A stretch of DNA of 39,490 bases from Chloroflexota bacterium (GTDB lineage Bacteria; Chloroflexota; Dehalococcoidia; DSTF01; RBG-16-68-14), in assembly GCA_022570885.1 (NCBI GenBank), contig JACZYW010000002.1, positions 1 through 39,490 on the forward strand, read 5' to 3'. This document shows positions 3,158 through 22,380 of the stretch, piece by piece; position 1 is the stretch's first letter; each line of letters begins with the position of its first letter. The notes under the pieces were generated by a model. That model saw nothing but the letters and a program-made list of their open reading frames with translations, made no database searches and had not been told where the DNA came from. The position numbers were made by a program, and so were the translations under genes.

Positions 3158-3203
3158 CAGTCACCGTCGGGCTGAAGCCCGGCCTGCAGAAGCTCTACAG
3201 CCA

Positions 3204-3875: not shown

Positions 3876-4555
3876 TAGCCACGCTCCTCCGGCACGGCCG
3901 CCGTTGCCTTATCGCCAATCGAGCTTTCATACGCCTCCGTCAGGCCGACCAGCACTTGATCGGCAATGGTAGTGACCTGCTCATACGCGGTGAGGGCCTC
4001 GGCGGCGGAGAGGTCTTGGCGCTGGCTGGCTTGTTTGGTCGCGTCGTCCAGGCTGCGCCGGAAGAAGATGAACGCCTCTACCGCTTGGGTTAGCGGAAAG
4101 CCAGCGGCGGCCAGCTCGCGGCCGTACTCATGGCCAAGGGCGCGGGCATCTTTCAACAGCGAGGCGCGGCGCGTACGCCGCCCCAGATATTCCGCCGCCA
4201 GCGTGGCCAGCCGCCGGCCCAGCGGGCGCAGCCGCTCCCGAATCGAGTCGTCCACCGTCGCGTACCAGGAGGACTCCTGCGCGGGACGGCGGTGGAGCTG
4301 TCGTCGAACGCGGGTGATCGCCAGCTCGCCCAACTCCTGGTAGCGCTGGCCATTGTGGCCGCGGCCGGCGAGAAGCTCCTGCAGGTCGGACTCGGCGAAA
4401 CGGCGATGGCCGCCGGGGGTGCGGAAAGCGTGCACGTGGCCGCCGTCCGCCCAGCGGCGTAGCGTCGATTCGTCGACGCCCAGCATGCGGCAGGCCTGGC
4501 CCAGGGTGAACCAGCGAACTTCAGGTGAGGGTGGTTGAGGGGTGCGCGAAGCCAT
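3875..4555 (-). CDS. MerR-superfamily / excisionase-type HTH DNA-binding protein with an uncharacterised helical C-terminal domain
   Basis: 226 aa. The N-terminal FTLGQACRMLGVDESTLRRWADGGHVHAFRTPGGHRRF is an HTH_17/MerR-like motif. Its TAA stop (3875-3877) overlaps the ATG of the sirC-like gene by 1 nt (TAATG). Confidence 0.7.
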   Translation of the reverse strand: MASRTPQPPSPEVRWFTLGQACRMLGVDESTLRRWADGGHVHAFRTPGGHRRFAESDLQELLAGRGHNGQRYQELGELAITRVRRQLHRRPAQESSWYATVDDSIRERLRPLGRRLATLAAEYLGRRTRRASLLKDARALGHEYGRELAAAGFPLTQAVEAFIFFRRSLDDATKQASQRQDLSAAEALTAYEQVTTIADQVLVGLTEAYESSIGDKATAAVPEERG

Positions 4556-4604
4556 AAATCTACCTAAATCTAAGTAATTATAACAGACTGTTGGCGTTAG
4601 CTAG

Positions 4605-4633
4605 ATTTTATTGGACGTGGAAGTTTGTGTCAA
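4605..4633 (-). promoter_or_regulatory. sigma70-type promoter for the HTH-hem operon
   Basis: On the minus strand: TTGACA (4633-4628), a 17-nt spacer, then TAAAAT (4610-4605), inside a locally AT-rich stretch 4556-4680. A second TATAAT lies at 4582-4577. Confidence 0.6.
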
Positions 4634-4726
4634 TAGGCTGTACTCGTCCAGTACATTAGTGACACTCTACTAACCCTTCCCGGCATGAGCGAGCTCGCGC
4701 AGGTACTGGTGCGGGGTGCGGTAGCC

Positions 4727-4756
4727 GAGGGCTTCGGCGTGAGCTCAGCCGAACGG
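4727..4756. repeat. 30-nt hairpin-forming intergenic repeat, copy 1
   Basis: GAGGGCTTCGGCGTGAGCTCAGCCGAACGG. Copy 2 at 15958-15987 differs at 2 positions. Contains the TTCGGC...GCCGAA stem. Confidence 0.8.
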
Positions 4757-4783
4757 CTGAACCCCGTCCAGCGGCGGAATGGC

Positions 4784-5575
4784 TCACGCCAGCCCGACGA
4801 GCGTGTCGAGGCCGCGCACGAGCTCCCGGCGGTTCATCACCTCTCGCGTGGCGAGGAGGACGCCCGGCATGAACGATTCGCGGCCGATGGAATCGTGGCG
4901 GATGGAGAGCGTCTGGCCCCGGCCGCCGAAGATCACCTCCTGGTGCGCGACCAGGCCGGGCAGCCGCACGCTGTGGATGGTGACGCCTTCGACATCGCCA
5001 CCGCGGGTGCCGGGCACCGTCTCGTTCTCCGGCACGTTGCGATCGAACGGCTTGCCGCGAGCGGCCAACATCAGGCGGGCGGTGGTGAGAGCGGTGCCGG
5101 AAGGCGCGTCGACTTTCCCATCGTGGTGCAGTTCGATGATCTCGACGGCATCGAAGAAGCGGGCCGCCACCTTCGCCGCGTGCATCAGCAAGATCGCGCC
5201 GATGGCGTAGTTGGCGGTCACCACAGCGCCCACCTCGCGCTCGCGGCAGCGCGCCTCCAGTTCGTCGAGCCAGCTATCGGGCAGCCCGGTGGTGCCGATC
5301 ACCAGCCGCACGCCTCGCTCCAGCGCTGCGTCCGCCACGAGCGGCGTCCAGCCGGCGTTGGTGAAGTCGACCACGACGTCCGGTTTCGTGCGCTCCAACA
5401 GCGACGGCACGTCGGCGCTCATCGGCACGACGCCGCCGCCCGGCAGCGCGAACTCATCCTCAGACGAGAACTTCTCGAGGACGCCGACGGGCTCCATGTC
5501 CGGCTCGCCGCTGACGGCGGCCAGCACCTCGCGGCCCATGTTGCCCGTTCCGCTGACGACGACACGAATAGTCAT
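4784..5575 (-). CDS. dapB: 4-hydroxy-tetrahydrodipicolinate reductase
   Basis: ORF 4784..5647. I chose the internal ATG at 5575 (MTIRVVVSGTGNMGREV, an NAD-binding start). The signature ELHHDGKVDAPSGTA is present. Confidence 0.9.
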   Translation of the reverse strand: MTIRVVVSGTGNMGREVLAAVSGEPDMEPVGVLEKFSSEDEFALPGGGVVPMSADVPSLLERTKPDVVVDFTNAGWTPLVADAALERGVRLVIGTTGLPDSWLDELEARCREREVGAVVTANYAIGAILLMHAAKVAARFFDAVEIIELHHDGKVDAPSGTALTTARLMLAARGKPFDRNVPENETVPGTRGGDVEGVTIHSVRLPGLVAHQEVIFGGRGQTLSIRHDSIGRESFMPGVLLATREVMNRRELVRGLDTLVGLA

Positions 5576-5612
5576 ACTCGCGCTCAGGGTACACCCTCTG
5601 GGAGGAGAACAG

Positions 5613-5643
5613 AAGACGCCCCCAACAATGTTGGGGGCGTCTT
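5613..5643 (-). terminator. strong hairpin between the pnp stop and the dapB start (possible terminator or attenuator)
   Basis: AAGACGCCCCCAAC-aat-GTTGGGGGCGTCTT, a 14-bp perfect stem. On the minus strand it is followed by TCTGTTCTCC, which is only partly U-rich. Confidence 0.45.
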
Positions 5644-5662
5644 TCACGCTATCGCTGTTGGC

Positions 5663-8101
5663 CTATCGGCGGAACGGCCCCGAGCCCAGGTTGGGGCCGG
5701 GCCGATCCGAGAGCGGCCGCGGGGGGCCTCGCCTGCTACCGCCACCACCAGGGCCTCTGCCGCCACCAGGGCCGCCTCGACCGCCACCAGGGCCGCCTCG
5801 ACCGCCACCAGGGCCGCCTCTACCGCCGCCAGGGCCACCTCTGCCACCGCCAGGGCCGCCTCTGCCGCCACCGGGGCCGCCTCTACCGCCGCCGGGGCCG
5901 CCTCGACCGGGCGGGCCCGAACGCCCTTCCCGCGGCGGACGGTCGTCAGAGCGCGGCCGATCAGGGGAGTCGCCGCGGTCGCTCGGTGGACGTCCCGCAG
6001 GGGCGCCTACTGCGTCTGGCGGTGGGCCATCTTCGCCGGCCATGGCGGCGCGACGGGAGAGGTTGATCCTCCCCATCGCGTCGATCTCGATCACCTTCAC
6101 TTCGATTTCGTCGCCCAGCGACACCACGTCCTCGACCGTCGGCACGTGGTAGTCGGCCAGTTCGCCGATACGGACCAGGCCGTCCTTGCCGCCCGGAATC
6201 TCGACGAACGCGCCGAAGTCCATGATGCGCGTGACTCTGCCGGTGTAGGTCTCGCCTACTTCGATATCCTTCGTCAGCCCTTCGATGATGGCGACGGCCT
6301 TCTGCGCCATCTCCGCGTCGGCAGAGCCCACGTAGACAGTACCGTCGTCTTCCACATCGACGCTGCACTTCGTCTCCTCGATGATCGAGCGGATGACCCG
6401 GCCGCCGGGGCCGATGACGGTGCCGATCTTCTCGACGGGGATCTGGATCCTGATCAGCCGTGGCGCCCACTGGGAGAGCTCATCGCGCGGTGCGGAGATC
6501 GTCTCGGTGATCTTGTCCAGAATGAAGAGCCGCGCCACTTTCGCCTGCTCCAGCGCCTTCTCCATGATCTCCACGGTGATGCCTTTAACCTTGATATCCA
6601 TCTGAAGAGCGGTAATGCCCTCGGCGGTACCGGCTACCTTGAAGTCCATGTCGCCTAAGGAGTCCTCATAGCCGGCGATGTCCGTGAGGATCGTGTAGGC
6701 ATCGCCCTCGCCCTTTATCAGCCCCATCGCGATGCCGGCCACCGGCGCCTTGATCGGCACGCCGGCGTCCATCAGCGAGAGCGTGCTGCCGCAGACGCTC
6801 GCCATCGAGGTGCTGCCGTTGCTGGAGAGCACCTCCGAGACGAGACGGATCGTGTAGGCGAACTCCTCTTCGCTGGGAAGCACCGCTTCTAGCGCGCGCT
6901 CCACCAGCGCCCCGTGTCCGACCTCGCGGCGGCCCGGCCCCCGCATCGGCCGCGTCTCGCCCACGGAGAAGGACGGGAAGTTGTAATGGTGGAGGAATCG
7001 CTTCTTCTCCTGAGGCGCGAGGTTATCGAGCCGTTGCTGGTCGCCGGTAGAGCCCAGCGTGGCGATGCTCAACACCTGGGTCTCGCCGCGAGTGAAGAGA
7101 CCGGAGGCGTGCGCGCGCGGCACGATGCCCACGCTGCAGGAGATCGGGCGGATCTCCGTCGGATCGCGGCCGTCCGGCCGGGCGCCGCGCTCCAAGATCG
7201 CCCCGCGCACCGTCTCTTTCACCACCTGGCTCAGCGCCTCGACGATCTCCTTTTCGTCGAACTGCTCGCCGAGGCGATCCACCAGCTCCTGCCGGCGCGC
7301 CCTCATCGCCGCGCTGCGCTCGTCTGCAGCGCTGACGAGTTCGTCCAGCTTGCCCTCTAGCGCGGACTGCACGGCATCCTTCACTTCCGGGCGAAGCGTC
7401 GCTGTCTCGAACTCGAGCTTCGGCTTGCCAACTTTGGCGATCAGCTCATCCTGGAGGTCCAGGACATCGCCGTTCACCCCCTGGCCGAACTCGATCGCCT
7501 CCAGCACGATGCTCTCCGGCACCTCGAGGGCGCCGGCTTCGACCATCATCACGGCGTCGCGCGTGCCTGCGACGATGAGGTCCAGCCCACTCTCTTCGAG
7601 CTGGGAATACGTCGGGTTAATGAGAAACTCGCCGTCGATGTAGCCGATGCGCACCGAGCTGATCGGCCCGGCGAACGGTATCTCCGATATCGAGAGCGCG
7701 GCGGAAGCGCCGATGGTGCCGAGCACATCGGGCACCTGCTCCCTGTCGACGGAGAGGACAGTGATGATCACCTGGACGTCGTTGCGAAAACCTTTGGGGA
7801 AGAGCGGGCGGATCGGCCGGTCGGTGAGGCGACAGGCCAGGATCGCATCGGTGCTCGGCCGCCCTTCGCGACGGAAAAAGCTGCCGGGGATCTTGCCGGC
7901 AGCGTACATGCGCTCTTCAAAGTCTACCGTGAGCGGGAACCAATCGATCCCCTCTCGTGGCTTGTCGCTCACACAGGCGGTCGCCAGCAGCATGATGTCT
8001 CCGTAGCGAACGGTGACTGCGCCGCCGGCCAATCCGGCCAGCTCTCCTACTTCCAACGTGAGCGGTAACGCTCCAATCGTGCGTTCAAATCGTTCCACCA
8101 T
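5663..8101 (-). CDS. pnp: polyribonucleotide nucleotidyltransferase (PNPase) with a ~128-aa Gly/Arg/Pro-rich C-terminal extension
   Basis: 812 aa. Two RNase PH-like cores ([33 protein letters not shown]), a KH domain ([14 protein letters not shown]) and an S1 domain ([20 protein letters not shown]), then a tail containing 7x GGPGGGR. Confidence 0.97.
5739..5906. repeat. 21-bp in-frame tandem repeat: 7 clean units plus 1 degenerate unit
   Basis: Units of ccgccaccagggccgcctcga start at 5760, 5781, 5802, 5823, 5844, 5865 and 5886, with a degenerate unit at 5739. They encode the GGPGGGR heptads of the PNPase tail on the minus strand. Confidence 0.95.
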
Positions 8102-8227
8102 ACGGTGTACCTAGCCTCCTATGAGATGAGTTGTGCTACAGGCTCCCGTTCTCCAGCGAGAACTCAGGCGGCCTGCAGTCTTTGGTTGTTTCTCTTCGTG
8201 TTCTTCGTGGCCCGGTGTGGGCTTCGG

Positions 8228-8256
8228 CGCCGATTCGGCGGGCGCGGATTCGCGCC
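8228..8256 (-). promoter_or_regulatory. tandem GC hairpins in the rpsO-pnp intergenic leader
   Basis: CGCC-gattc-GGCG (8228-8240) and GGCGCG-gatt-CGCGCC (8241-8256), within the 209-nt gap. An AGGAGG RBS precedes the pnp ATG. Confidence 0.4.
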
Positions 8257-8310
8257 GGTAGTGTGGTGTGTACTCCCCTCTTCCTTCCTACCGATATGAA
8301 GAGGCCCCCG

Positions 8311-8577
8311 TTACTTGCGGAGGCCTAGCTTGCTGAGGACGGCTCGATAGCGCGGCAAATCCGTCCTGCTCAGATACGCCAGTTGCCGGCGACGCTGCCC
8401 TACCAACTTGAGGAGTCCGCGCTGAGAATGGTAGTCATGCTTGTGTACGCGCATGTGCGCCGTCAACTCGGTGATCCGCTGGGTGAGGAGTGCAACCTGT
8501 AGCTCCGAGGAGCCGGTATCCCCTTCGTGTAGGGCGTGCTCCTGGATAATGGTCGCTTTTTGTTCCTTCGTTAGCAT
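8311..8577 (-). CDS. rpsO: 30S ribosomal protein S15
   Basis: 88 aa. ...[39 protein letters not shown]..., a canonical S15 sequence, directly upstream of pnp. Confidence 0.97.
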
Positions 8578-8701
8578 ATACTTTTGTTGCCACCTGTACC
8601 TATGCTATGCTCGTTCAGCTTCGCCTCAGTCTAGCACGCGACGAATTATAGACGCAACCGCCTCTCCCACGCGAACGTTCTCGGCAAGGAGGCCGCCGTC
8701 C

Positions 8702-9559
8702 ATGAGCCGCGTCGGCATCGTCACCGACAGTACCGCTTGCATCCCAGCGGAGCTAGCGGCCGAGCGCCGGATCGAAGTAGTTCCCCTCCACCTGGCCTTC
8801 GGCGAGCGGATCTACCTGGATGGCATGTCCTCTGACACCGCCGAATTTTACGAAACGCTTCGCACGACCCGCCAGGCGCCCACCACCGCCGCGCCGCCGC
8901 CCGGCGTCTATGCCGAAGCGATCCTGCGGGCGGGCAAGGACGCCGATGCCGTGCTCTGTCTCACGGTCTCTCGCCAGTTCAGCGCCATGTACGAAGCTGC
9001 CGTCCAGGGCGCCGCGCTCGTCAGCGAACAGGAGCCGAGCCTCGACGTGCGCGTGCTCGATTCCGGCGCCGCCGCCATGGCCCAGGGCTTCGTCGTGCTG
9101 GAGGCGGCGCGCGCGGCCGCAGAAGGCGCCGCTATCGAACAGCTGATCGCGCGGGCGGAGACGCTGATGCCGCGGGTGCAGCTCCTCGTCGCCCTCGACA
9201 CGCTGGCGTACTTGGCGCACAGCGGGCGGGTACCGCGTCTCATCATCTGGGCCGCCTCGCCGCTGCGGATCAAGCCCATCGTCCAGTTCCAGAAGGGCAA
9301 GTACCGCCCTATCGCCATCGTGCGCACCATGCGAGGCGGGGTAGAGCGACTGCTCCAGGCGCTAACGCGGCGGACAGAGGGAGGCGTCCTGCACGTCTGC
9401 GTGCACCACACGAACGTTCCCCAGGAAGCGGAGGCGCTGGCGGAGCGAGTTCGCGACACGCTCCAGCCGAAGGAGCTGCTGATCGCGGAGTTCAACCAGG
9501 TGATGGGCGTGCACACCGGCCCCGGCCTGCTCGGTTTCGCCTTCTACACGGAGCCCTAG
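8702..9559 (+). CDS. DegV family fatty-acid-binding protein
   Basis: ORF 8441..9559 trimmed to the ATG at 8702, preceded by AAGGAGG. MSRVGIVTDSTACIPAELAAERRIEVVPLHLAFGE... is a typical DegV N-terminus. Confidence 0.9.
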   Translation: MSRVGIVTDSTACIPAELAAERRIEVVPLHLAFGERIYLDGMSSDTAEFYETLRTTRQAPTTAAPPPGVYAEAILRAGKDADAVLCLTVSRQFSAMYEAAVQGAALVSEQEPSLDVRVLDSGAAAMAQGFVVLEAARAAAEGAAIEQLIARAETLMPRVQLLVALDTLAYLAHSGRVPRLIIWAASPLRIKPIVQFQKGKYRPIAIVRTMRGGVERLLQALTRRTEGGVLHVCVHHTNVPQEAEALAERVRDTLQPKELLIAEFNQVMGVHTGPGLLGFAFYTEP

Positions 9560-9623
9560 CGACGGTCGAATCGCCCTCTGCGCCCTGGCTCAACACCTCC
9601 GTTCTATCCTATACTGGCAGCGC

Positions 9624-10229
9624 ATGATCGTTACCCAACCCACGGTGCGCCGCGACGATGTAGCGCGAATTCTGGCTGAAGTCAACGCCGACGGCCCACA
9701 ACGGCAACGGCCGGCGCTCGTCGTGCTGGTTGGGCTGCCCGCGAGCGGCAAGAGTCGCGTCGCCGGCGAACTCCGAGAGCGCACCGGCGCAGCCGTCCTC
9801 GAGAGCGACGCGCTTCGCCGCCTCCTCTTTCCGCAGCGCACGTACTCGGCCGGGGAGAGCCAGCAGCTCTTCGCCGCCATCCACGCCGCCATCGACGAGC
9901 TGCTATCGGAGGGCGCGACGGTGGTGCTGGACGCGACGAATCTCGCTGAGGAAGAGCGGACGCCTTTGCGCGACATGGCCGCGCGATGGGATGCCAGGCT
10001 CGTCTTCGTGCGAGTCACCGCGCCCGATTCGCTGATCCGGCGCCGCCTGGCGAACCGCAGCGTCGACGACGTCGACGGCTCCGAGGCGGACGTCCGCGTG
10101 TACGAGCGCATGCGCTCGCGGATAGAGAAGCTACCGCAGCCGCATCATATCGTCGATACTTCCCAGGAGATCGGGCCGGTGCTGGCGGTCATCGCGAAGG
10201 AGTTAGGCGCGAAGGAGAGAGCATCGTGA
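9624..10229 (+). CDS. P-loop kinase-like ATP-binding protein (AAA_33 / zeta-toxin-like fold)
   Basis: 201 aa. Walker A VLVGLPASGKS, then VVLDATNL as a Walker B-like strand. A TATACT box ends 8 nt before the ATG. Confidence 0.7.
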   Translation: MIVTQPTVRRDDVARILAEVNADGPQRQRPALVVLVGLPASGKSRVAGELRERTGAAVLESDALRRLLFPQRTYSAGESQQLFAAIHAAIDELLSEGATVVLDATNLAEEERTPLRDMAARWDARLVFVRVTAPDSLIRRRLANRSVDDVDGSEADVRVYERMRSRIEKLPQPHHIVDTSQEIGPVLAVIAKELGAKERAS

Positions 10230-10948
10230 GCAGAGAAAAGCGAAGATCATCACTCGGCTCCAGCAGGCGCACGCCGGTTAAGGCGAGCGCTGGCGGTGGC
10301 CGCAACGTCCCCTGGACGCCGATCGTGGTCGTCCTCGGCCTCGCCGCTGTCGTCGGGCTCGTCGGTTTCCTCATCTGGCAGGTATCCCAACCGGCGGGAG
10401 AGGGCTCCGGCATCGCTGCCGAAGCTGACGACGATCCCAACCTGCCGGGAGAGTGGGTGGACCTCCCCTCGATCTACGGCGACCCCTATAGCGCCACCGC
10501 CTCACACGTGAGCCGAGACGTCGATTACGCAGCAGACCAGGGCGAGCTACCTCCGGTCGGCGGCCCCCACTGGGGCACCGGCGCCTGCGTGACCGATGAG
10601 GACGGTAATCCCGCCCCGACCGCCTTCTGCGGACCTGCGCCCTGGGGCATCTACCGGGAAGCCTGGGAGCCGGAGACGGTAGTCCACAACATGGAGCACG
10701 GCGGCCTGGTCCTCTGGTACAACACCACCGATCAGGCTATCATCAACGAACTTGAGGACATTATCAGAGGCCGTCTAGATCGAGGAGATCTGCTCGTGAT
10801 GCTGCCGCTCCCCGATATGGAAGAAGAGACGATCGCCCTCACCGGCTGGTCGCGCCGCGATAAATTCCCGGTGAGCGAATACACCGAGGATCGGGTGAAC
10901 GAGTTCATCAACAAGCACGAGCGGCGCTTCAACCCGGAGAACCAGTAG
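10226..10948 (+). CDS. membrane-anchored DUF3105-like protein
   Basis: ORF 9986..10948 trimmed to GTG 10226, which overlaps the kinase stop as GTGA. It has a basic N-terminus, one TM segment (WTPIVVVLGLAAVVGLVGFLIW) and a HNMEHGGLVLWYN motif that I associate with DUF3105. Confidence 0.65.
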   Translation: MSREKRRSSLGSSRRTPVKASAGGGRNVPWTPIVVVLGLAAVVGLVGFLIWQVSQPAGEGSGIAAEADDDPNLPGEWVDLPSIYGDPYSATASHVSRDVDYAADQGELPPVGGPHWGTGACVTDEDGNPAPTAFCGPAPWGIYREAWEPETVVHNMEHGGLVLWYNTTDQAIINELEDIIRGRLDRGDLLVMLPLPDMEEETIALTGWSRRDKFPVSEYTEDRVNEFINKHERRFNPENQ

Positions 10949-10955
10949 AGAGCGG

Positions 10956-11798
10956 CTACGACTCCGGCAGCGCCCCGGCCAACCGTCGCACGGCAGGATA
11001 GGCCCAGCGCTGAAGCGCCAGCGCCGCCAGCAGCCCCAACGGGACCACCGCCAGGCCCGCGATCCCATCCAGGATGTAGTGGTTCGCCGTGAAGATGATC
11101 GCGGCGAACTGGCCGATGGGCATGAACACGGCCAGCGTTCGTAGCCACAGGTTTCGCGTCGCCCAGAAGAGCACGCCGCCCACCAGCACGGCCCAGCCGA
11201 CGTGGAGGCTGGGCACCGCCGCATACGGGTTCACGAACGGCTGCATCGACTGCGCTTGGTAGCTGAGATTGCTGTGCACATTCAACGTATCGACGAAGCT
11301 GAAGCCGTACTCCGGCGGCAGCAGGCGCGGCGGCATCACCGGGTACAGCTGGTAGACGACGAGCGCGATCGCCCCCGACGCCAGCACGGCATCGCGCGCC
11401 ACGGTGTACTGGTGTCGATGCGAGAAGTAGAGCCAGAGCCCGACCACGACGATCAGCGGGAAGTCCAGCCAGAAATAGATCGCGTTGAAGAGCTGGATCA
11501 GCGCGCCGTAGTCGAGGATCGCCTCGTTCAGCCACGGTTCCCAGAAGAAGCCGAGCGAGCGCTCCAGGTCGATAATGCCGGCGGCGTTGCCCAGCGCCTC
11601 GTCGCGCCGGTCCACCACGCTGCCACGCACCAGGAAATAGAGGAGGAACGCCAGCGCCACCAGGCCGATCTCCAACGCGTCGCGGAAGATGCGACGCCGG
11701 CTCACGGCCTCGATCAGCCTGCGGGACGCAACACCGATTTCTACCGCCAAGACAGCCCTCCGGCGCTCTTTGCGTTTTTCCTCACCGCAGCGTATCAT
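10956..11798 (-). CDS. PAP2-superfamily membrane phosphatase or phosphotransferase
   Basis: 280 aa, polytopic. PAP2 C2/C3-like motifs PSLHVGWA and ANHYILDGIAG. The start codon is uncertain. Confidence 0.75.
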   Translation of the reverse strand: MIRCGEEKRKERRRAVLAVEIGVASRRLIEAVSRRRIFRDALEIGLVALAFLLYFLVRGSVVDRRDEALGNAAGIIDLERSLGFFWEPWLNEAILDYGALIQLFNAIYFWLDFPLIVVVGLWLYFSHRHQYTVARDAVLASGAIALVVYQLYPVMPPRLLPPEYGFSFVDTLNVHSNLSYQAQSMQPFVNPYAAVPSLHVGWAVLVGGVLFWATRNLWLRTLAVFMPIGQFAAIIFTANHYILDGIAGLAVVPLGLLAALALQRWAYPAVRRLAGALPES

Positions 11799-12021: not shown

Positions 12022-13668
12022 ATGGAGATCCGTGTTGAGCAGGGCGATATCGCCCGATACCCAGCCGACGCCATCGTCGTCAACCTGTTCGACGGCGTCA
12101 GGAAGCCCGGCGGCGGCACCGGCGCCGTCGATAGCGCGCTGGACGGCGCAATCTCGCGGGTGATCCGCGACGGCGACTGCCGGGGCAAGGAGAACGAGTT
12201 CACCCTGATCCACTCGCTGGGCAAGATCCCGTCGCCGCGAGTGCTGGTGGCGGGGCTGGGCAAGGCAGAGAGCTTCACGCTGGACAAGGTGCGAACCGTC
12301 GCCGCCGGCGCCGCTCGCTATCTACGGGGTCGTCGCTGCAAGACGATCGCCACGATCACCCACGGCGCGGGCATCGCCGGCCTCGATCCGGAAGCGTGCG
12401 CCCAGGCCATCGTCGAGGGCACCCTCCTCGGCCTCTACACCTTCAACCGCCACAAGAAGCCGAAGCCGGACGAGACCGAGGTGCGCGAGCTGGTGCTCGT
12501 CGAGTTCGACCCGTCTCGAATCGATGCGCTGCGCCGCGGCGTCGAGCGGGGCGTGGCGCTGGCCGAGGCGGCCAACTTCGCCCGCGATCTGTCGAACGAG
12601 CCCGGCAACCACCTCACGCCGACCGATCTGGCCGAGCGGGCCCGCGCGCTGGCGGAGGAGACCGGGCTGGAGTGCACGGTGTACGACCAGCCGTGGATGG
12701 AAGAACAGGGGATGGGCGCGCTCCTCGGCGTGGCGAAGGGGAGCCATCAGCCGCCCAAGTTCATCGTCCTGCGCTATCGAGGCAGGCAGTCGCTCGCGAT
12801 CAGGAAGCTGCTGCGAGAGTTGAAGCAGGCGCGAGCCGAGGACAAGCAAGCAGAGGCGAAGAAGATCCGCGAAGAGCTACGTACGGAGCACGGTTACTAC
12901 ATCTCTCGCCAACCTGCGAAGCCCACCCACCTGGTGCTGGTGGGCAAGGGGATCACGTTCGACACCGGCGGCATCTCGATTAAGCCGGCGGCGGGCATGG
13001 AAGAGATGAAGGGCGATATGTCCGGCGGCGCCGCCGTCATCGCCGCGATGGGCGCGATCGCCCGGCTGAAGCCGGCGATCAACGTCACCGCCATCGTTCC
13101 CGCCACGGAGAACATGCCCGGCGGCAGCGCCACCAAGCCCGGCGACGTGCTGCGGACGATGAGCGGCAAGACGATCGAGGTGATCAACACCGACGCCGAA
13201 GGCCGCCTGATCCTCGCCGACGGCCTCGCCTACGCCCGCAAGCTGCGCCCCACGTTCATCGTCGATGTCGCCACGCTCACCGGCGCGATCTCCATCGCGC
13301 TGGGCAACGTGGCGATGGGGGCGATGACCAACCACGAGCCGCTGTACGCTCGCATCCAGCGAGCCGCCGGTGTCGCCGGTGAGAAGGTGTGGCAGCTCCC
13401 GATGTTCGACGAGTACAAAGAGCAGATCAAGAGCCAGGTGGCCGACATGAAGAACGTCGGCGGGCGGGGCGCCGGCTCGATCACCGCCGCCTTCTTGCTG
13501 AAGGAGTTCGTCGGGGACACGCCCTGGGTGCATATCGACATGGCCGGCGTCGATTTCTACAGCCAGGAGAAGGGCATCACCGTGAAGGGCGCCAGCGGCA
13601 TCCCCGTGCGCACCCTCGTCCACCTGGCGCTGGACCTGGCGAGCGACCCGCTGGAGAATACTGTATAA
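12022..13668 (+). CDS. pepA: leucyl aminopeptidase (M17) with a ~45-aa charged insertion
   Basis: 548 aa. VGKGITFDTGGISIKP and NTDAEGRLILAD are M17 signatures. GAGGAG precedes the ATG. Confidence 0.93.
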   Translation: MEIRVEQGDIARYPADAIVVNLFDGVRKPGGGTGAVDSALDGAISRVIRDGDCRGKENEFTLIHSLGKIPSPRVLVAGLGKAESFTLDKVRTVAAGAARYLRGRRCKTIATITHGAGIAGLDPEACAQAIVEGTLLGLYTFNRHKKPKPDETEVRELVLVEFDPSRIDALRRGVERGVALAEAANFARDLSNEPGNHLTPTDLAERARALAEETGLECTVYDQPWMEEQGMGALLGVAKGSHQPPKFIVLRYRGRQSLAIRKLLRELKQARAEDKQAEAKKIREELRTEHGYYISRQPAKPTHLVLVGKGITFDTGGISIKPAAGMEEMKGDMSGGAAVIAAMGAIARLKPAINVTAIVPATENMPGGSATKPGDVLRTMSGKTIEVINTDAEGRLILADGLAYARKLRPTFIVDVATLTGAISIALGNVAMGAMTNHEPLYARIQRAAGVAGEKVWQLPMFDEYKEQIKSQVADMKNVGGRGAGSITAAFLLKEFVGDTPWVHIDMAGVDFYSQEKGITVKGASGIPVRTLVHLALDLASDPLENTV

Positions 13669-13698
13669 TACGAGCCCTGCCAGAGTGCCATGTGGCTG

Positions 13699-14049
13699 TT
13701 AGCCATCACTGGCACGTTCTTCATCATGCCAATGATATAGAGTAGGGAACCGCCTCATCGACTCAAGTAGATGATCCAACTCATCCGAAGTCATGAGGCT
13801 GATTGGTTTGAGCTGTACCCTCATGAGCCGCTCAACCTCCTCTAACGGAAGCTGCTGGCTAAATGCACGGACGTTGCCAGGAATGAGCAAGGGGGCATTG
13901 GATGGCAGAAGGCGAGCTTTCTCAAGTATCTGCACCGTTTTCTGGCGAGGGTTTTTTGTCTCGCCGCTCAGTACACGCTCCAATGTCGACCGGTGCACAT
14001 TGTTTTCGCGTGCCAGTTGGCTAATGTTGACGGAGAGACTACGCGGCAT
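13699..14049 (-). CDS. XRE/Cro-like HTH transcriptional regulator (low-GC island)
   Basis: ORF 13699..14058. I prefer ATG 14049, which has AAAGGA 11 nt upstream; TTG 14058 is the alternative. NISQLARENNVHRSTLERVLSGE is a helix-turn-helix pattern. Local GC is clearly lower than in the flanks. Confidence 0.6.
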   Translation of the reverse strand: MPRSLSVNISQLARENNVHRSTLERVLSGETKNPRQKTVQILEKARLLPSNAPLLIPGNVRAFSQQLPLEEVERLMRVQLKPISLMTSDELDHLLESMRRFPTLYHWHDEERASDG

Positions 14050-14084
14050 ATGTCGCAAAGTCCTTTGCTACAATATGGACTCCT

Positions 14085-14113
14085 AAAATAGGGCAACTCA
14101 GAAAGAAGTGCAA
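14085..14113 (-). promoter_or_regulatory. promoter of the island HTH gene
   Basis: On the minus strand: TTGCAC (14113-14108), a 17-nt spacer, then TATTTT (14090-14085). The motif TTGCTACAA (14065-14073) lies in the predicted 5' UTR. Confidence 0.55.
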
Positions 14114-14135
14114 GCTTGATTAGACGAATAAGCTC

Positions 14136-14163
14136 TTGACTATTTGCTGCAATGTTGTAGCAT
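14136..14163 (+). promoter_or_regulatory. promoter of the small-ORF/Dcd-like unit, overlapped by inverted repeats
   Basis: TTGACT (14136-14141), a 16-nt spacer, then TAGCAT (14158-14163). The inverted repeat TGTAGCAT (14156-14163) / ATGCTACA (14179-14186) covers the -10 box. A second inverted repeat is TTGCTGC (14144-14150) / GCAGCAA (14168-14174). Confidence 0.5.
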
Positions 14164-14224
14164 ATACGCAGCAAACAAATGCTACACGTGGATAGCAATC
14201 TTGCGAGAGGAGTTAGAGATTCTA

Positions 14225-14530
14225 ATGGGAGAAAAGACTAGAGCTCCAGCTGGACGAGTCCCCTTGGAGTGCGTGATTTTCCCGGGTATGTTCTCCACTG
14301 AGCGCCGGGTTGAGCTAAGAATCGGAGACAAGGAATATGTCACGTACGCTGACGAGGAGTTTCTCACCATTAGCGATGAGCCCAGTGAAGGCGGGGGCAA
14401 AAAAGGTATGGTATGGGTTAAGGTCAGGCGTGATTTGCCTGACGCATATGTCGTTGCGCTTCCTGAAGAGACCCTATCCGCAGGAGAATTGATTACTGTC
14501 CCGAAAAACGCGGTGCAAGAAGTCGTATAG
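14225..14530 (+). CDS. hypothetical 101-aa protein (no family recognised)
   Basis: ORF 14144..14530 trimmed to ATG 14225, with GAGAGGAG 12 nt upstream. MGEKTRAPAGRVPLECVIFPGMFSTERRVELRIGDKEY...SDEPSEGGGKKG...VWVKVRRDLPDAYVVALPEE...LITVPKNAVQEVV. Low GC, same strand as the Dcd-like gene. Confidence 0.5.
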   Translation: MGEKTRAPAGRVPLECVIFPGMFSTERRVELRIGDKEYVTYADEEFLTISDEPSEGGGKKGMVWVKVRRDLPDAYVVALPEETLSAGELITVPKNAVQEVV

Positions 14531-14605
14531 GTTGTTCACCAGGGCACCCTGCCCTGATTACAACCAGGGATAGACCACGTGCCTGCCTTCATACATATGG
14601 TTTAG

Positions 14606-15220
14606 GTGAATAAACGCCACATCAGAAGGAACGCCTCTTTGATTCTTGCTCACGATGACATACTGAAGGATCTCAAGGCCGGTGATCTGATCATCGGAAG
14701 GCCTGGCGAGCAACAATTCGAGGAAGATCAGATCCGCGAATCGTCTATCGATCTCCCTATCGGGAGTGAGTTTTTTCGGTGGAGAAGGCATGACGAGATA
14801 GAGCGAGATCCGGGACTCAGCACTGAGGCAAGTCGCATCGGGTTGAGTCTCCCACCTAAACAGCTGGCCGAAGAGCTGCAGCGATTGCAGAGCGTTTTCA
14901 CAGAGCGATCACAAATTGGGCCTGACGGAACATTCAGGTTGCAGCCGGGTGATTTCGTTCTAACTCAGGTTGGACAGTTCATTCAGTTGCCAGATTACTT
15001 GGCAGCACGAGTAGAAGGCAGGACCAGATTTGCCAGAGCGGGGCTGGAAGTCCACAGCACAGCGCCTACCATACGTGTAGGCTGGGGAGGCCACATCACA
15101 CTTGAGTTGAAGAATGTTGGGCCGTTAGTTTTCCTCCTGAGTCCTGGCGACAGAATCTGCCAGCTGATACTGGAGCGCGTCCTCACGCCACCTGCTGTTA
15201 AGCTGGAGTCTCAGTACTAA
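14606..15220 (+). CDS. dCTP deaminase (Dcd)/dUTPase-fold protein with a shortened C-terminus
   Basis: 204 aa from GTG 14606, or 193 aa from TTG 14639, which has GAAGGA 9 nt upstream. From memory, E. coli Dcd motifs are matched as follows: SIDLPIG (SVDLRLG), LQPGDFVL (LHPGELAL), GRTRFARAGLEVH (GRSSLARLGLMVH), and GWGGHITLELKN (GWSGCIVLEFYN, with the catalytic Glu codon at 15104-15106). Confidence 0.8.
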   Translation: MNKRHIRRNASLILAHDDILKDLKAGDLIIGRPGEQQFEEDQIRESSIDLPIGSEFFRWRRHDEIERDPGLSTEASRIGLSLPPKQLAEELQRLQSVFTERSQIGPDGTFRLQPGDFVLTQVGQFIQLPDYLAARVEGRTRFARAGLEVHSTAPTIRVGWGGHITLELKNVGPLVFLLSPGDRICQLILERVLTPPAVKLESQY

Positions 15221-15275
15221 CGTACTCTCTATTGGGAACTGTTCCGGCGGGGCCGATCGACGATTCATAAGGCCC

Positions 15276-15929
15276 ATGCCCCCTACTCTGCGCCGCCGCA
15301 AGCTCCCCTACGACGCCACAACGGCCCGCGACCACCTGCGCCGCGCCGACAGCACCATGCGCGGCATCGTCGAGCGGGTGGGGCCGCTCGCGCTGGAGCT
15401 GCGCGGCAGCCCCTACCAGTCGCTCGTGCGCGCGCTGCTCTACCAGCAGCTCGCAGGCGCGGCGGCCTCCGCGATCGAGCGTCGCTTCCTCGCCCTGTTC
15501 GGCGACCGCGTGCCGGAGCCCGAGGAGCTGCTCGCGACGGCTCCCGAAGCGCTGCGCTCGGCCGGCATCTCGCGACAGAAGACCGGCTATCTCTACAGCC
15601 TGGCCGAGCACGCGTCGGCGGGGCTGCTGGAGGCCGGAGCGCTGCGCCGAGCGTCGGACGACGAGGCGATCGAGATCGTGACGCAGATCAAGGGCGTGGG
15701 CCGCTGGACGGCGGACATGCTGCTGATGTTCTGCCTCGGCCGGCCCGACGTGCTGCCGGTCGGCGACCTAGGCGTGCAGCGGATCATGGCCGAGGCGTAT
15801 CGCCTCGACTCGCGGCCCGACGCGGACGCGATGCTCCGGATCGCGGAGCCGTGGCGGCCGTATCGCAGCGCCGGCGCCTGGTACCTCTGGCGCTACGGCG
15901 ACGTGATCACGCAGGAGAACACGCTGTAG
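15276..15929 (+). CDS. HhH-GPD DNA glycosylase (DNA-3-methyladenine glycosylase II-like)
   Basis: 217 aa. Helix-hairpin-helix IKGVGRWTADMLLMF followed by PVGDLGVQ, carrying the catalytic Asp. GC returns to the genomic level. Confidence 0.85.
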   Translation: MPPTLRRRKLPYDATTARDHLRRADSTMRGIVERVGPLALELRGSPYQSLVRALLYQQLAGAAASAIERRFLALFGDRVPEPEELLATAPEALRSAGISRQKTGYLYSLAEHASAGLLEAGALRRASDDEAIEIVTQIKGVGRWTADMLLMFCLGRPDVLPVGDLGVQRIMAEAYRLDSRPDADAMLRIAEPWRPYRSAGAWYLWRYGDVITQENTL

Positions 15930-15987: not shown

Positions 15988-16046
15988 GTGACGCTAGTCG
16001 GGGTGAGGGCTACACCCAGCGCCTCCGCGCGTACCAATCTACGCTG

Positions 16047-16096
16047 GTAGGGGCGACCATCCGGTCGCCCTGGGCGGGCAGCCGCCCGCCCCTACG
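16047..16096. repeat. 50-nt double-hairpin element, copy 1
   Basis: GTAGGGGCGACCATCCGGTCGCCCTGGGCGGGCAGCCGCCCGCCCCTACG, identical to 16746-16795. It has an outer GTAGG/CCTAC stem enclosing the hairpins GGGCGACC-atcc-GGTCGCCC and GGGCGGGC-agcc-GCCCGCCC. Confidence 0.95.
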
Positions 16097-16186
16097 TTAC
16101 GCCCGCCTCCGCGCGTATCAGGCCGCGCCGCCGAGAGCGAGACCGTGCCCGCCGCGATGCGCATAGGGCGACTACTGAGGTGGGAG

Positions 16187-16555
16187 CTATCGCACGAATC
16201 GGCTGGGGATGCGGAAGGCGCCCAGCAGCGCCAGGAGGGTCATGCAGGAGACCGAGTACGCTGAGAGCACACTCGTGAGGGCGATCGGCCGTTCGCGGGC
16301 GTAGTCCACGAGGCCGAGCTGGACGAAATCGGCGATCTGTTCTCTCAGCTCGTCCCAGCCCAGCGAGATGAGTAGCACCGCCGCCACATCGAGCACGAGG
16401 ATGGCAAACGTGAGCGTCAGGCTGGCGACGACGAGCTCCAGCGTGGGCGCCGTCGTCGTCGCGGACGGCGTGTAGTAGCGGTTGACGTAGTAGTTGATCA
16501 GCCCAGGGACGACGAACAGGCCGAGGACGAATGCCGACGTGATGAAGAAATCCAC
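16187..16555 (-). CDS. small hydrophobic membrane protein (~122 aa), unknown function
   Basis: ORF 16187..16585 trimmed to GTG 16555, which has AAGGAGG 6 nt upstream. It has several TM-like segments (FFITSAFVLGLFVVPGLI, LVVASLTLTFAILVLDVAAVLLI, VLSAYSVSCMTLLALLGAF). Confidence 0.55.
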   Translation of the reverse strand: MDFFITSAFVLGLFVVPGLINYYVNRYYTPSATTTAPTLELVVASLTLTFAILVLDVAAVLLISLGWDELREQIADFVQLGLVDYARERPIALTSVLSAYSVSCMTLLALLGAFRIPSRFVR

Positions 16556-16745
16556 AGCCGACCTCCTTGCCGGGCTCGCCTCCACCCGAGGCGCGCGCTG
16601 GCTGGCCGGATTGTAGCACGGCTGGGGCGCGCGCGGCGGCCTCGGTCACGGAGAGGAGCGTCCCAACTTGGGGCGCTCCTCGGTTAGATTACTTCGCGCC
16701 TGGAACTATCTCACCCAGCGCCGCCTTGTGTACCAGGCCGCGCTT

Positions 16746-20563: not shown

Positions 20564-21060
20564 GTTAGACCTGTGGATTCGTCGGCGGAATGGTGATCGG
20601 GATACACATCGTCAAGCCAAGCCACTCGCTTCGTAAGTCTAGGCGAGTGAAGCATCTCCCTCCTCACGCGAACGTTCCTAAGCGCGGCTCATTATAGGCG
20701 TCCCTCCGCCGCCCCTGCAACTTTCACTCTGTGGCTTAGGAAAGGGGTGCAAATTCTTGCACGAGTCGTCATAAAAGACTTGATCCCACCCCCATACCTC
20801 GTGCTATGCTCACCATCGCCTGGGGTCGTTCTCCCCAAACCCAACGGAGCGGGTCTCCCGGTGCGGCTCGCCGCCGCCAGCCCGAACGAGTGCGTTCACC
20901 GTCCGGGCAGAAGGCACCAGCGATAAGATCGCACCGACTGGCGCCAGGCAGTTCTAGTGACTCAGCGCAGATTCATGCTAGCTTGGCTGGACGCCAGGTA
21001 TGGGAGGTGCTATCTCTCAACCAGGCCTGGGCGAGCATAGCCAAAAAGGAGGAGTCCGCC

Positions 21061-22380
21061 TTGCCCGACCGTTCACCAAAAGCGCTCTGGGAGACCGCCC
21101 TCGGTCAGCTAGAGCTCCAGGTCACCCGCCCCAACTTCGAGACCTGGCTTCGTGAAACGGTTGGCTTGCGCATCGAACATAATCGCTTCGTAGTCGGGGC
21201 GCCTTCTGACTTCGCCGTCGTCTGGCTGGAGTCGCGATTGAATCCGTTGATCAACCGCACCGTCTCGCAACTGCTCGGCGAATCGCTCCCCGTCTCCTTC
21301 GAGGTACTCGGCGCCCAGCCCGTCGCGCCCGCGGCCAGCAGCAGCCCCGCAGCCCCGTCTCCCGCCGGGCCGCCACCTCCTGACCTGAATCCCCGGCTGA
21401 CCTTCGGCACCTTCGCTGTTGTCGAAAGCAACCGGCTCGCCTACCGCGCCGCGCGCAAGGTCGCTACAGGCGAGAAGAATGGCTACAACCCACTGGTCCT
21501 CTGCGGGCCGCCCGGCCTGGGGAAGACCCACCTTCTGCACGCCATCGCGCACGAAGCAGCGGACAGCGGCAAGCACGTTGTTCTCCTCACTTGCAAGGAG
21601 TTCGCCGAACGCTACGCTACGACCGTCCGCGAAGGACATCGACACGAATTCCTCGACACGTATCGCCGCGTCGACGTACTGCTACTCGACGATCTTCAGT
21701 TTCTTACCACGCGGCCGGGCTCGCAGGAACAGTTCTTCCACATCTTCAACGACCTCTACTCGAACGATCGCCTTCTCGTCCTTACCAGCGCTGCGCCGCC
21801 ACAGGCGCTCGATGGTCTATCTCTACACCTTAGCTCTCGCCTCCAGGCCGGCCTTACGGTGACAGTACAGCTCCCCCCACATGAAGAGCGTTTGGAGATT
21901 CTGCTCGCAAAGGTAGCGGATCTCAAGAACGCCCCGCCTGAGCCAATCCTACGGCTTATCGCTCGGCAAGACTGCCAGCATATCCGCGAGATGGAAGGCG
22001 CCCTTAACCGTGTTGTCGCGTATGCCGACCTAACTGGAAAGCCCTATACCATCGAGCTAGCAAAGCAAGCATTGACGCCTCTCCACGAATCTTCATCCCG
22101 CCCAGAGCCGGACGAAATTCTTAAAGCCGTCTGCAAACACTTCCATCTCCCGCTCAGTCAAATCACCGGCCCTTCTCGCGCCCGTGACATCACCTACGCT
22201 CGCCACATCGCGATGTATCTCCTGCGGCACTCCTCTCAGCGCCCGCTCGCAGAGATCGGCAAACTTCTCGGCAACCGCGATCACTCCACAGTCCTCAGCG
22301 GCTGCCGTCGCATCACGCGCGAGCTAACATCTCTACCCCAAACACACACAGATATCCAACAGCTCGAAGCTGCCCTTTAG
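21061..22380 (+). CDS. dnaA: chromosomal replication initiator protein DnaA
   Basis: ORF 20806..22380 trimmed to the in-frame TTG 21061, preceded by AAAAAGGAGG plus 8 nt. Walker A GPPGLGKTHLLHAI, DVLLLDDLQFL, and the C-terminal DNA-binding ARHIAMYLLRH...DHSTVLSG. Confidence 0.95.
   Translation: MPDRSPKALWETALGQLELQVTRPNFETWLRETVGLRIEHNRFVVGAPSDFAVVWLESRLNPLINRTVSQLLGESLPVSFEVLGAQPVAPAASSSPAAPSPAGPPPPDLNPRLTFGTFAVVESNRLAYRAARKVATGEKNGYNPLVLCGPPGLGKTHLLHAIAHEAADSGKHVVLLTCKEFAERYATTVREGHRHEFLDTYRRVDVLLLDDLQFLTTRPGSQEQFFHIFNDLYSNDRLLVLTSAAPPQALDGLSLHLSSRLQAGLTVTVQLPPHEERLEILLAKVADLKNAPPEPILRLIARQDCQHIREMEGALNRVVAYADLTGKPYTIELAKQALTPLHESSSRPEPDEILKAVCKHFHLPLSQITGPSRARDITYARHIAMYLLRHSSQRPLAEIGKLLGNRDHSTVLSGCRRITRELTSLPQTHTDIQQLEAAL

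Follow-up and report, generated by a model that had tools for sequence, protein, structure and literature searches.

A conserved pair of a small-protein gene and a Dcd-fold enzyme gene in a low-GC island of a Chloroflexota bacterium, a candidate nucleotide-targeting defence or toxin module

Does the low-GC island next to pepA in a member of the Chloroflexota encode a module that acts on the nucleotide pool? The question was raised by a sequence-only reading of 39,490 nt of DNA from Chloroflexota bacterium (assembly GCA_022570885.1, contig JACZYW010000002.1, positions 1 to 39,490 of the forward strand), a stretch that we refer to as the window. That reading singled out three genes at 13669-15240, namely a gene for an XRE-like helix-turn-helix (HTH) regulator, a small open reading frame (ORF) and a homologue of the deoxycytidine triphosphate (dCTP) deaminase gene dcd, and treated the trio as one functional unit. 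Our comparisons across genomes indicate that the conserved unit is the pair of small ORF and Dcd-like gene, not the trio. This gene pair appears to be previously undescribed and is a candidate nucleotide-targeting defence or toxin module.

The small partner gene (14225-14530, + strand; ATG at 14225, 101 residues) is followed by the gene for an enzyme of the Dcd fold in the trimeric dUTPase superfamily (14639-15220, + strand; TTG start, 193 residues). The two genes were adjacent in 10 of 11 independent contexts, spread over three clades of Dcd-like proteins that are about 35% identical. The small gene directly precedes the Dcd-like gene in the window lineage and at loci L006/L088, L093, L094, L096, L097/98 and L099/100. 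A profile search of 1.84 billion representatives returned 44 relatives of the small protein, nearly all of them standalone proteins of 90-130 residues, and seven distinct distant neighbourhoods were reached from this side. Four of the seven (L093, L094, L097/98 and L099/100) have a gene for a 194-195-residue PF22769 protein directly downstream, with a 4-nt overlap or a 7-nt gap, and L096 shows the same arrangement cut by the contig end. L090/91 (4001-4590) keeps a deletion remnant, in which the small gene continues directly into what is left of a Dcd-like gene, its C-terminal half (residues ~97-192). A contig of Candidatus Curtissbacteria from the candidate phyla radiation (L092, MFAV01000045.1, 2708-5201) carries two small-family paralogs (4001-4390 and 4800-5201) and no Dcd-like gene nearby. 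Beside these paralogs stands a divergent gene whose 275-residue product joins an XRE-type HTH to a deoxynucleoside kinase domain (PF01712), a link to nucleotide salvage; in no other context was the small family seen with no trace of the enzyme.

Searches from the enzyme side led to the same pairing. In L101, a 1.19-Mb contig of the 35%-identity clade, the enzyme gene is overlapped by an upstream gene of 107 codons that matches the small family with an hhalign probability of 96% (E = 5e-9). On five Sinorhizobium and Mesorhizobium megaplasmids, a gene annotated 'dcd' is preceded by a 79-residue small-family gene (probability 88%, E = 3e-6), which was found on exactly those five rhizobial plasmids. 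The presence of the module in cultured strains of both genera makes it experimentally accessible.

Spacing between the two genes is tight in most of these loci: in six clades they overlap by 4-14 nt or are separated by 7-28 nt, and in the window lineage by 108-162 nt. A small upstream gene and a larger downstream gene, close or overlapping within one operon, is a layout like that of type II toxin-antitoxin (TA) systems. The two proteins diverge in step, their pairwise identities at ten loci being correlated (r = 0.91, Mantel p = 2e-4), and this co-divergence together with the adjacency in 10 of 11 contexts supports the suggestion that small ORF and Dcd-like gene are functionally linked. The small gene was seen without an intact enzyme (L090/91 and L092), while the enzyme, which lacks an aspartate reportedly kept throughout the superfamily (see below), was never seen without the small gene. 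The asymmetry is an indirect hint of the pattern expected of a controller and a toxin. The family is rare, with tens of clusters among 5.8 billion proteins, and the signature of the window type was absent from 185,579 GTDB species representatives.

The third gene of the proposed trio encodes the HTH protein (13699-14049, - strand; 116 residues from its ATG, the ORF extending to a TTG at 14058; GC 0.52). The protein consists of an N-terminal HTH (residues ~7-50) and an uncharacterised C-terminal half. It matched Pfam HTH_3 with E = 0.0028 and 18.1 bits, below the gathering cut-off of 23, and PHROG 925, 'HTH DNA binding protein', with E = 1e-5; we regard the HTH as weak but probably real. Orthologues are present in the host-lineage relatives L001, L007 and L089, and the ratio of nonsynonymous to synonymous substitution rates (dN/dS) was 0.145 against L001. 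No HTH gene lies beside the pair in L102, L097 and L099, and the comparison marks it as a lineage-specific accessory to the pair. As a functional unit the trio did not hold up, since the HTH gene is absent from the rhizobial and other copies and lies outside a swapped cassette in the window lineage.

This cassette became apparent in the comparison with L001. Synonymous divergence (dS) between the window and L001 was 0.13 for pepA, 0.12 for the HhH-GPD gene on the other side of the island and 0.25 for the HTH gene; it reached 1.01 for the small ORF and 1.43 for the Dcd-like gene, with dN/dS of 0.11 and 0.09, respectively. Sliding nucleotide identity to L001 was 57-88% inside 14185-15275 and 90-98% outside, so that the exchanged cassette holds exactly the small ORF and dcd and leaves out both operator and HTH gene. 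Fast protein evolution was ruled out as the cause of the low identity by a dN/dS of about 0.1 with dS ten times that of the flanks. By the same measures, the cassette has been replaced by a much older allele, and its history reads as homologous replacement or long-lived polymorphism, not as that of an ordinary housekeeping gene. Both genes are, by these ratios, under strong purifying selection and functional. Across comparisons, dN/dS of the small ORF was 0.10-0.13, which supports its standing as a real gene under selection.

How old is the island in its present place? The trio lies between pepA and the HhH-GPD gene in the near-identical contigs L002-L005 and in L001, L007 and L089, these host-lineage relatives being short metagenomic contigs. 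Identity of pepA to the window is 94% in L001, 71% over 31 residues in L007 (whose flanks are short and more diverged) and 63% in L089 (which has one extra gene). In every case, the trio has a GC content of ~50-55% vs 66-71% in the flanks. A recent strain-specific insertion was ruled out by the presence of the trio in the same slot in L001, L007 and L089. Shared neighbours in relatives, which the sequence-only reading had named as evidence against itself, were found in part: the pepA-proximal slot is kept even where pepA is only 63% identical. In L008 (pepA 73% and HhH-GPD 71% identical), the two neighbours are present and the slot is filled by an unrelated 256-residue gene on the opposite strand, alpha/beta-hydrolase-like by eye. 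The rhizobial copies are plasmid-borne, with a disrupted gene of the IS110 insertion sequence (IS) type upstream and an integrase gene nearby.

The composition of the island is consistent with a foreign source. Its G+C content (0.513 in 13669-15240) compares with a mean of 0.658 (standard deviation 0.026, minimum 0.576) for other segments of 1572 nt, corresponding to z = -5.5, and it is the lowest-GC stretch of the window. In steps of 200 nt, GC is 0.635 at 13500-13699, sinks to 0.43-0.45 between the divergent genes (14000-14299), rises to 0.49-0.575 in the genes and reaches 0.67-0.74 from 15200 onwards. Third-position GC is 0.57 in the HTH gene and 0.53 and 0.56 in the other two island genes, vs 0.90 in pepA and 0.94 in the HhH-GPD gene. 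A compositionally foreign island with sharp borders at both ends, as first proposed from hand counts, was confirmed by these measures. The proposed gene order also stood, with three corrections to gene boundaries: the HTH gene at 13699-14049, the small ORF start at 14225 and the dcd start at TTG 14639. GTG 14606 was ruled out as the dcd start: in L001, where the 45 nt around it are nearly the same, it does not share the reading frame of the gene, which leaves TTG 14639. Enzyme starts other than ATG are common in the family (window, L001, L094, L096, L097 and L099).

What kind of enzyme does the downstream gene encode? It matched PF22769 with E = 2e-30 (106.2 bits vs a cut-off of 27) and PHROG 1663, passed the curated NCBIfam cut-off of TIGR02274 by a small margin (100.6 vs 92.8 bits), and gave Pfam matches to DCD and dUTPase families only. 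It aligned end to end with the structures from Mycobacterium tuberculosis, Escherichia coli and Methanocaldococcus jannaschii, with profile E-values of 1e-34 to 1e-36. In an alignment of 17 sequences, Glu156 (E. coli E138), Arg133 (R115) and His139 (H121) were invariant, the register being confirmed against 1xs1 and 2qxx. Gln175 (M. tuberculosis Q148) and the T-A strand were invariant in all three paired clades.

Other positions have changed. Thr129 replaces Ser111 and Arg130 replaces Ser112, so that the phosphate loop of the window type reads G-R-T-R-F-A-R vs the canonical G-R/K-S-S-L-A/G-R; the loop of the other two paired clades is G-R-S-T-L-A-R. Arg146 occupies the position of the superfamily-conserved aspartate (E. 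coli D128, M. tuberculosis D119), at which the three paired clades show Arg, His or Met. Thr144 stands at position 126, which is Arg in monofunctional and aromatic in bifunctional enzymes. The canonical T-A-x-(R/F/W)-I-D-P-G-(W/F) has become T-A-P-T-(I/V)-(R/H/M)-A-(G/T)-(W/F/Y) in the paired clades, with no gap between the invariant His and Glu. A full C-terminal arm, which comprises ~30 residues beyond the core with Y-x-x-Q-x-G and closes over the nucleotide, is missing: the window-type chain stops at the Tyr equivalent to E. coli Y179, before Y-x-x-Q, and the other two paired clades end 4-5 residues past Y-x-x-Q.

Published work on the superfamily helps to interpret these changes. The aspartate is reported to be conserved in the whole dUTPase/Dcd superfamily and indispensable for the hydrolysis of deoxyuridine triphosphate (dUTP), for which it coordinates the catalytic water; it also contacts the sugar 3'-OH (PMC3360063). 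At position 126, monofunctional enzymes have an Arg that is the salt-bridge partner of the aspartate, and bifunctional enzymes an aromatic residue (PMC3360063). Hydrolysis of dUTP is not expected of the window enzyme because the aspartate is absent (Arg146) and a Thr stands at the aromatic position. The residue pattern suggests that deamination is retained, dUTP hydrolysis is lost, and recognition of the sugar or the phosphates is altered to some degree. The earlier description of the catalytic motifs as intact was correct for the deamination residues Glu156, Arg133 and His139, with Ser111 replaced by Thr129, but not for the aspartate or the truncated C-terminal arm.

RefSeq names the enzyme of Sinorhizobium garamanticum (L102, NZ_CP120375.1, 170648-171478) and of four other rhizobial megaplasmids 'dcd: dCTP deaminase', with the Gene Ontology term deoxyribonucleotide metabolism. 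For enzymes in which the superfamily-conserved aspartate is missing, this label is probably an over-annotation, and one that probably affects metabolic reconstructions. Two further 'dcd' matches, on an Azospirillum chromid and a Streptomyces plasmid, were rejected as members of the paired clade, as they are canonical and keep I-D-P-G-W/F and a long C-terminus; the canonical Streptomyces plasmid dcd adjoins thyX.

The small protein had no match among Pfam, PHROG, NCBIfam or PADLOC families, and ten distant members of its family had none in Pfam. The family shares a strand-turn motif, C-x-V-x-x-G-M-F-S-x-E-R, and a C-terminal L-P-x-E-T-x-x-x-G-x-x-I-x-V-P. Two AlphaFold2 models, one based on 9 sequences and the other on 28, both show an all-beta protein of seven strands with two small barrel-like halves (pLDDT 74). 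Foldseek comparisons of the models with PDB and BFVD gave nothing better than E = 0.06, with a vague SH3/OB-like likeness only.

In the window, the HTH gene and the pair are separated by a divergent regulatory region of 175 nt (14050-14224) with a promoter and an inverted repeat. The promoter of the small-ORF/dcd operon is sigma-70-like, with a -35 element TTGACT (14136-14141), a spacer of 16 nt and a -10 element TAGCAT (14158-14163); an AGGAG ribosome binding site (14208-14212) precedes the small ORF. The inverted repeat, TGTAGCAT (14156-14163) and ATGCTACA (14179-14186), overlaps the -10 element, and a third TGCTACA copy lies next to the start of the HTH gene (14066-14072). Three of the eight TGTAGCA copies in the window fall inside 121 nt, against ~1.5 expected over its full length. 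Coding sequences have diverged to 55-80% among the window, L001, L007 and L089, yet these loci share identical half-sites and an identical -35 element. The operator-like repeats noticed at first sight are thereby substantiated by enrichment and by conservation in four diverged loci, and the idea of a module under an HTH/operator arrangement gains support. The region resembles an autoregulated repressor/operator pair, in which the HTH protein would bind and repress.

A second layer of control may lie in the spacer between the small ORF and dcd (14531-14638, + strand), which holds a hairpin and a leader of ~45 nt. The hairpin that had been pointed out (14540-14556, 7-bp stem, with an outer stem 14531-14535/14560-14564) is present in the window but specific to it, not being conserved in L001, L007 or L089. 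As a conserved terminator or attenuator it was ruled out, having neither a T-run nor conservation. The leader (about 14592-14638) is almost identical in L001 (~3150-3196) and L007 (~1063-1109), where the coding parts are only 69-79% identical at the protein level. Within it, CCUUC can pair with the GAAGG Shine-Dalgarno sequence ahead of the TTG start, and this stem is conserved in the window and L001. The leader may be a translational control element. Rfam searches found no RNA element in the spacer or elsewhere in the window. We place the spacer outside the core module because the genes overlap or lie 7-28 nt apart in other clades.

Are copies of the pair found among defence genes? PADLOC models matched neither protein in any clade, but several neighbourhoods are suggestive. 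At L093, genes resembling capH (8e-12) and capP (2e-45, full length) lie directly upstream of the pair operon. At L099/L100, a gene for a type IIG restriction-modification enzyme (2e-94) lies upstream and a DitA gene, split into two ORFs, downstream; we take DitA to be a gene of the Aditi defence system. The pair remnant at L090/91 has a type III restriction endonuclease-like helicase gene and a HicB-like gene near it, the pair at L102 a candidate-defence protein (PDC-S12), and the pair at L096 a DUF433/DUF5615 pair, presumably a TA pair. At these five, distant copies thus occupy recognisable defence or TA neighbourhoods, and adjacency to defence and TA genes is repeated, not universal. CapH and CapP are DNA-damage-responsive regulators of many immune operons (10.1101/2022.04.27.489752; 10.64898/2026.05.16.725639).

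Two signature sets identified no IMG/VR viral contig with the subfamily or the wider paired clade, and INPHARED held no phage record matching the small protein. As a separate observation, the pair of L101 sits at the edge of a ~6-kb stretch (about 5200-11200) of lower GC (0.51-0.58 vs 0.60-0.67) with many small unannotated genes and an HNH endonuclease gene, possibly a mobile or defence islet.

The reading that we tentatively put forward, a little short of an even chance in our judgement, is a repressor-controlled toxin or defence module that converts dCTP to dUTP, with the small protein as its controlling partner. As the deaminating Glu, Arg, His and Ser/Thr are kept but the aspartate is lost, the enzyme would be monofunctional and deaminate dCTP or a similar cytosine nucleotide, draining dCTP and making dUTP that it cannot detoxify. 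The small protein, co-translated, co-diverging and never missing where the enzyme is intact, is for these reasons proposed to interact directly with the enzyme, most likely as an inhibitor or a controller of the antitoxin kind and less likely as an obligatory activating subunit. In the Dehalococcoidia lineage, the operon would additionally be controlled by the divergent HTH repressor, binding the TGTAGCAT/ATGCTACA operator over the -10 element, and the weak TTG start and the anti-Shine-Dalgarno stem would keep the amount of enzyme lower still. Once the operon is de-repressed or the partner lost, the dCTP pool would collapse and DNA would become loaded with uracil, stopping replication of the cell and of an infecting phage. 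A more specific version, possible but doubtful, is a new anti-phage system of the abortive-infection type on the trimeric dUTPase/Dcd fold. It would act by dCTP starvation and uracil poisoning, with an all-beta partner that keeps the enzyme inactive until infection or DNA damage removes this partner or lifts the repression of the operon, for which some hosts would use CapH/CapP and the window its HTH repressor. The altered sugar pocket may also direct the enzyme to modified dCTPs specific to phages or to a signalling nucleotide that contains cytosine.

Several observations weigh against such a toxin or defence module. The same chromosomal slot is kept over long divergence (pepA 63-99% identical), which also fits a useful metabolic gene, and the surroundings in the window are housekeeping genes near oriC, not a defence island. 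Without the 3'-OH-binding aspartate and with a short C-terminal arm, the enzyme could bind dCTP differently or not at all and may have another substrate. No antitoxin or DNA-binding fold can be recognised in the small protein, whose model is of moderate confidence. The defence adjacency rests on a handful of loci on few and short contigs, in a family too rare for enrichment statistics; L094, L097 and L101 show no defence genes. Association with CapH/CapP is not specific to immunity, because CapH/CapP-like pairs also control mobile elements and DNA-damage regulons. Toxicity, substrate, product and physical interaction are all things that we infer.

A rather unlikely alternative, and the main rival, is an accessory or replacement metabolic dCTP deaminase of two subunits that supplies dUTP and dUMP for thymidylate synthesis. 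The small protein would then be a structural or allosteric subunit, standing in for the C-terminal lid or conferring feedback, the HTH protein would adjust expression to the need for pyrimidines, and the low GC would stem from an old horizontal acquisition fixed beside pepA. Such an enzyme would explain the passed TIGR02274 cut-off, the name 'dcd' given by PGAP to the rhizobial copies, the conserved deamination residues, the strong purifying selection, and the stable position beside pepA in housekeeping surroundings; the small-family genes of L092 beside an HTH-deoxynucleoside kinase fusion also fit. It sits badly with a patchy and rare distribution, including the absence of the window-type signature from GTDB representatives, and with the different gene that fills the slot in L008 at a pepA identity of 73%. 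A housekeeping gene would not usually differ between close relatives by a dS ten times that of its flanks, as the cassette does. Rhizobia have chromosomal pyrimidine pathways, and their copies of the pair lie on plasmids beside IS and integrase genes. Further points against metabolism are the decayed copy at L090/91, the lack of any copy near thyA, thyX or dut, the loss of the conserved aspartate, and the defence or TA neighbours of several copies.

The same module might instead perform another chemistry, acting on CTP, dCDP or dCMP, 5-methyl- or 5-hydroxymethyl-dCTP or a cytosine signalling nucleotide, or serving as a non-catalytic sensor with the small protein as effector or adaptor, in defence, counter-defence or the maintenance of a mobile element. 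We consider this unlikely. The aromatic residue after the motif excludes ribose in dUTPases, and it is retained here as W/F/Y. The invariant catalytic Glu and pyrimidine-pocket residues (H-x-T-A, Gln) argue for retained cytosine deamination, and no positive evidence for an alternative ligand was obtained. What speaks for a changed ligand is that the replaced residue reads the sugar 3'-OH (PMC3360063) and that Arg, His and Met at its position across clades suggest the canonical contact is not required. In addition, the Thr at position 126 is found in neither characterised class, and in the window type both phosphate-loop serines are changed (GRTRFAR) and the chain ends before Y-x-x-Q. Very improbable, finally, is the remnant of a prophage or integrated element, that is, an immunity repressor and a phage nucleotide-metabolism gene that no longer form a functional unit. 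Low GC, an XRE-like repressor with a divergent promoter, and the matches to PHROG 925 and 1663 would suit a remnant. The searches for viral contigs and phage records came back empty, however, and no integrase, tRNA or att-like repeat lies at the borders; purifying selection acts on all three genes, and their arrangement has persisted over deep divergence. The sequence-only reading had offered this remnant as its own alternative, and these data do not favour it.

The flanking genes themselves, pepA (M17 leucyl aminopeptidase, 12022-13668, + strand) on the left and the gene of the HhH-GPD DNA glycosylase family (15276-15929, + strand) on the right, are high-GC core genes outside the module. Membership of the HhH-GPD gene was ruled out by its high GC, its 94% identity vs 78-80% for the cassette, and its place beside pepA in the trio-free L008. 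Of 80 pepA relatives retrieved, nearly all come from metagenome-assembled genomes of Chloroflexota/Dehalococcoidia, and the best reference match has 73% identity. Core chromosome of this uncultivated member of the Dehalococcoidia surrounds the island, with hemA, dapB, pnp and pepA on one side and HhH-GPD, a major facilitator superfamily transporter gene, coaBC and coaX on the other. No tRNA, integrase gene, att-like repeat or flanking direct repeat was found at the island borders. The pepA product contains a charged insertion of ~45 residues (residues ~253-300, …RQSLAIRKLLRELKQARAEDKQAEAKKIREELRTEHGYYISRQPAKP…) between the N-terminal and catalytic domains, which has no counterpart in the 500-residue L008 orthologue; Pfam splits the catalytic domain into two stretches, with a faint CysS_C match at the insertion.

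The replication origin of the chromosome probably lies within the window. The dnaA gene is ~6 kb from the island, where the GC skew changes sign. This DnaA-like gene (20806-22380, + strand) encodes, by eye, the AAA+ motifs GLGKTHLL and DDLQFL and a C-terminal DnaA-type DNA-binding region. Since it sits at both the skew switch and the cumulative-skew minimum, the window probably spans the origin; local GC is 0.57-0.61 (about 20.5-23.7 kb). Downstream follow genes for an Obg-like GTPase and a nadD-like gene, and gyrB lies at 34575-36545 (- strand). Downstream of the HhH-GPD gene, L001 has a PIN-domain gene (4539-5045, - strand) with a small upstream ORF, possibly a VapBC-like pair; the counterpart of this spot in the window (16000-16700) has a membrane-protein-like ORF of 132 codons, a second variable spot beside the island.

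How does the pair relate to systems already described? Our literature search found no paper on a Dcd-fold enzyme in defence or TA systems, on COG0717 in defence islands or on a pairing of a small protein with Dcd, and nothing relevant on PF22769. In fold and length class, the window enzyme is like canonical Dcd (E. coli 1xs1; EC 3.5.4.13) and the bifunctional enzymes (M. tuberculosis 2qxx/2qlp and M. jannaschii 1ogh; EC 3.5.4.30). Shared with both are the N-terminal S-S-I-D-L strand, the G-R/K-S/T-x-x-A-R loop, the H-x-T-A strand, the catalytic Glu of L-E-x-x-N and the Gln of C-Q-L-I. Unlike both, it lacks the Asp of I-D-P-G-W/F, has Thr at position 126 and has a short C-terminal arm. The paired gene also differs in being preceded by a small gene, never beside thy or dut genes, mobile, patchy and of low GC. 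From the set that characterises the bifunctional enzymes (Ser102, Asp119, Gln148 and an aromatic residue) only the Gln is present, Ser being replaced by Thr. This natural and widely conserved Dcd lineage without the superfamily aspartate would offer enzymology a direct test of the role of that residue.

Immune operons regulated by CapH/CapP are also similar, as capH- and capP-like genes immediately precede the operon of the L093 pair and the HTH repressor of the window takes an analogous position. The window differs in that it encodes no peptidase like CapP, and the capH model does not recognise its HTH protein. AvcD, a toxin of a related kind, has a zinc-dependent deaminase fold. In the type III TA defence system AvcID, AvcD is a deoxycytidylate deaminase and the antitoxin AvcI is a small RNA (PMC10511110). 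The proposed likeness is a deoxycytidine-nucleotide deaminase held by an antitoxin encoded upstream and active when the antitoxin is lost. Here, by contrast, the candidate controller is a conserved protein of 80-130 residues, neutralisation by which is putative, and the enzyme fold differs.

Depletion of nucleotide pools is an established means of immunity in organisms from bacteria to humans, and every known defence enzyme that deaminates deoxycytidine (dC) nucleotides has, to our knowledge, the fold of the zinc cytidine deaminases. Tal et al. described a dCTP deaminase, a single protein of 576 residues in which an N-terminal kinase-like domain is combined with a zinc-dependent cytidine-deaminase domain (10.1101/2021.04.26.441389), the architecture that the sequence-only reading had named for known defensive dCTP deaminases. 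The pair resembles it in the proposed depletion of dCTP, which would block phage DNA synthesis, and in the position of several copies among defence genes. It differs in the trimeric dUTPase fold, in having neither zinc motif nor kinase domain, and in its separate small protein. If the proposed function is correct, the pair would add a new effector and controller to the defence and TA repertoire, and dC-deaminating defence would have arisen on a second, unrelated fold by convergent evolution.

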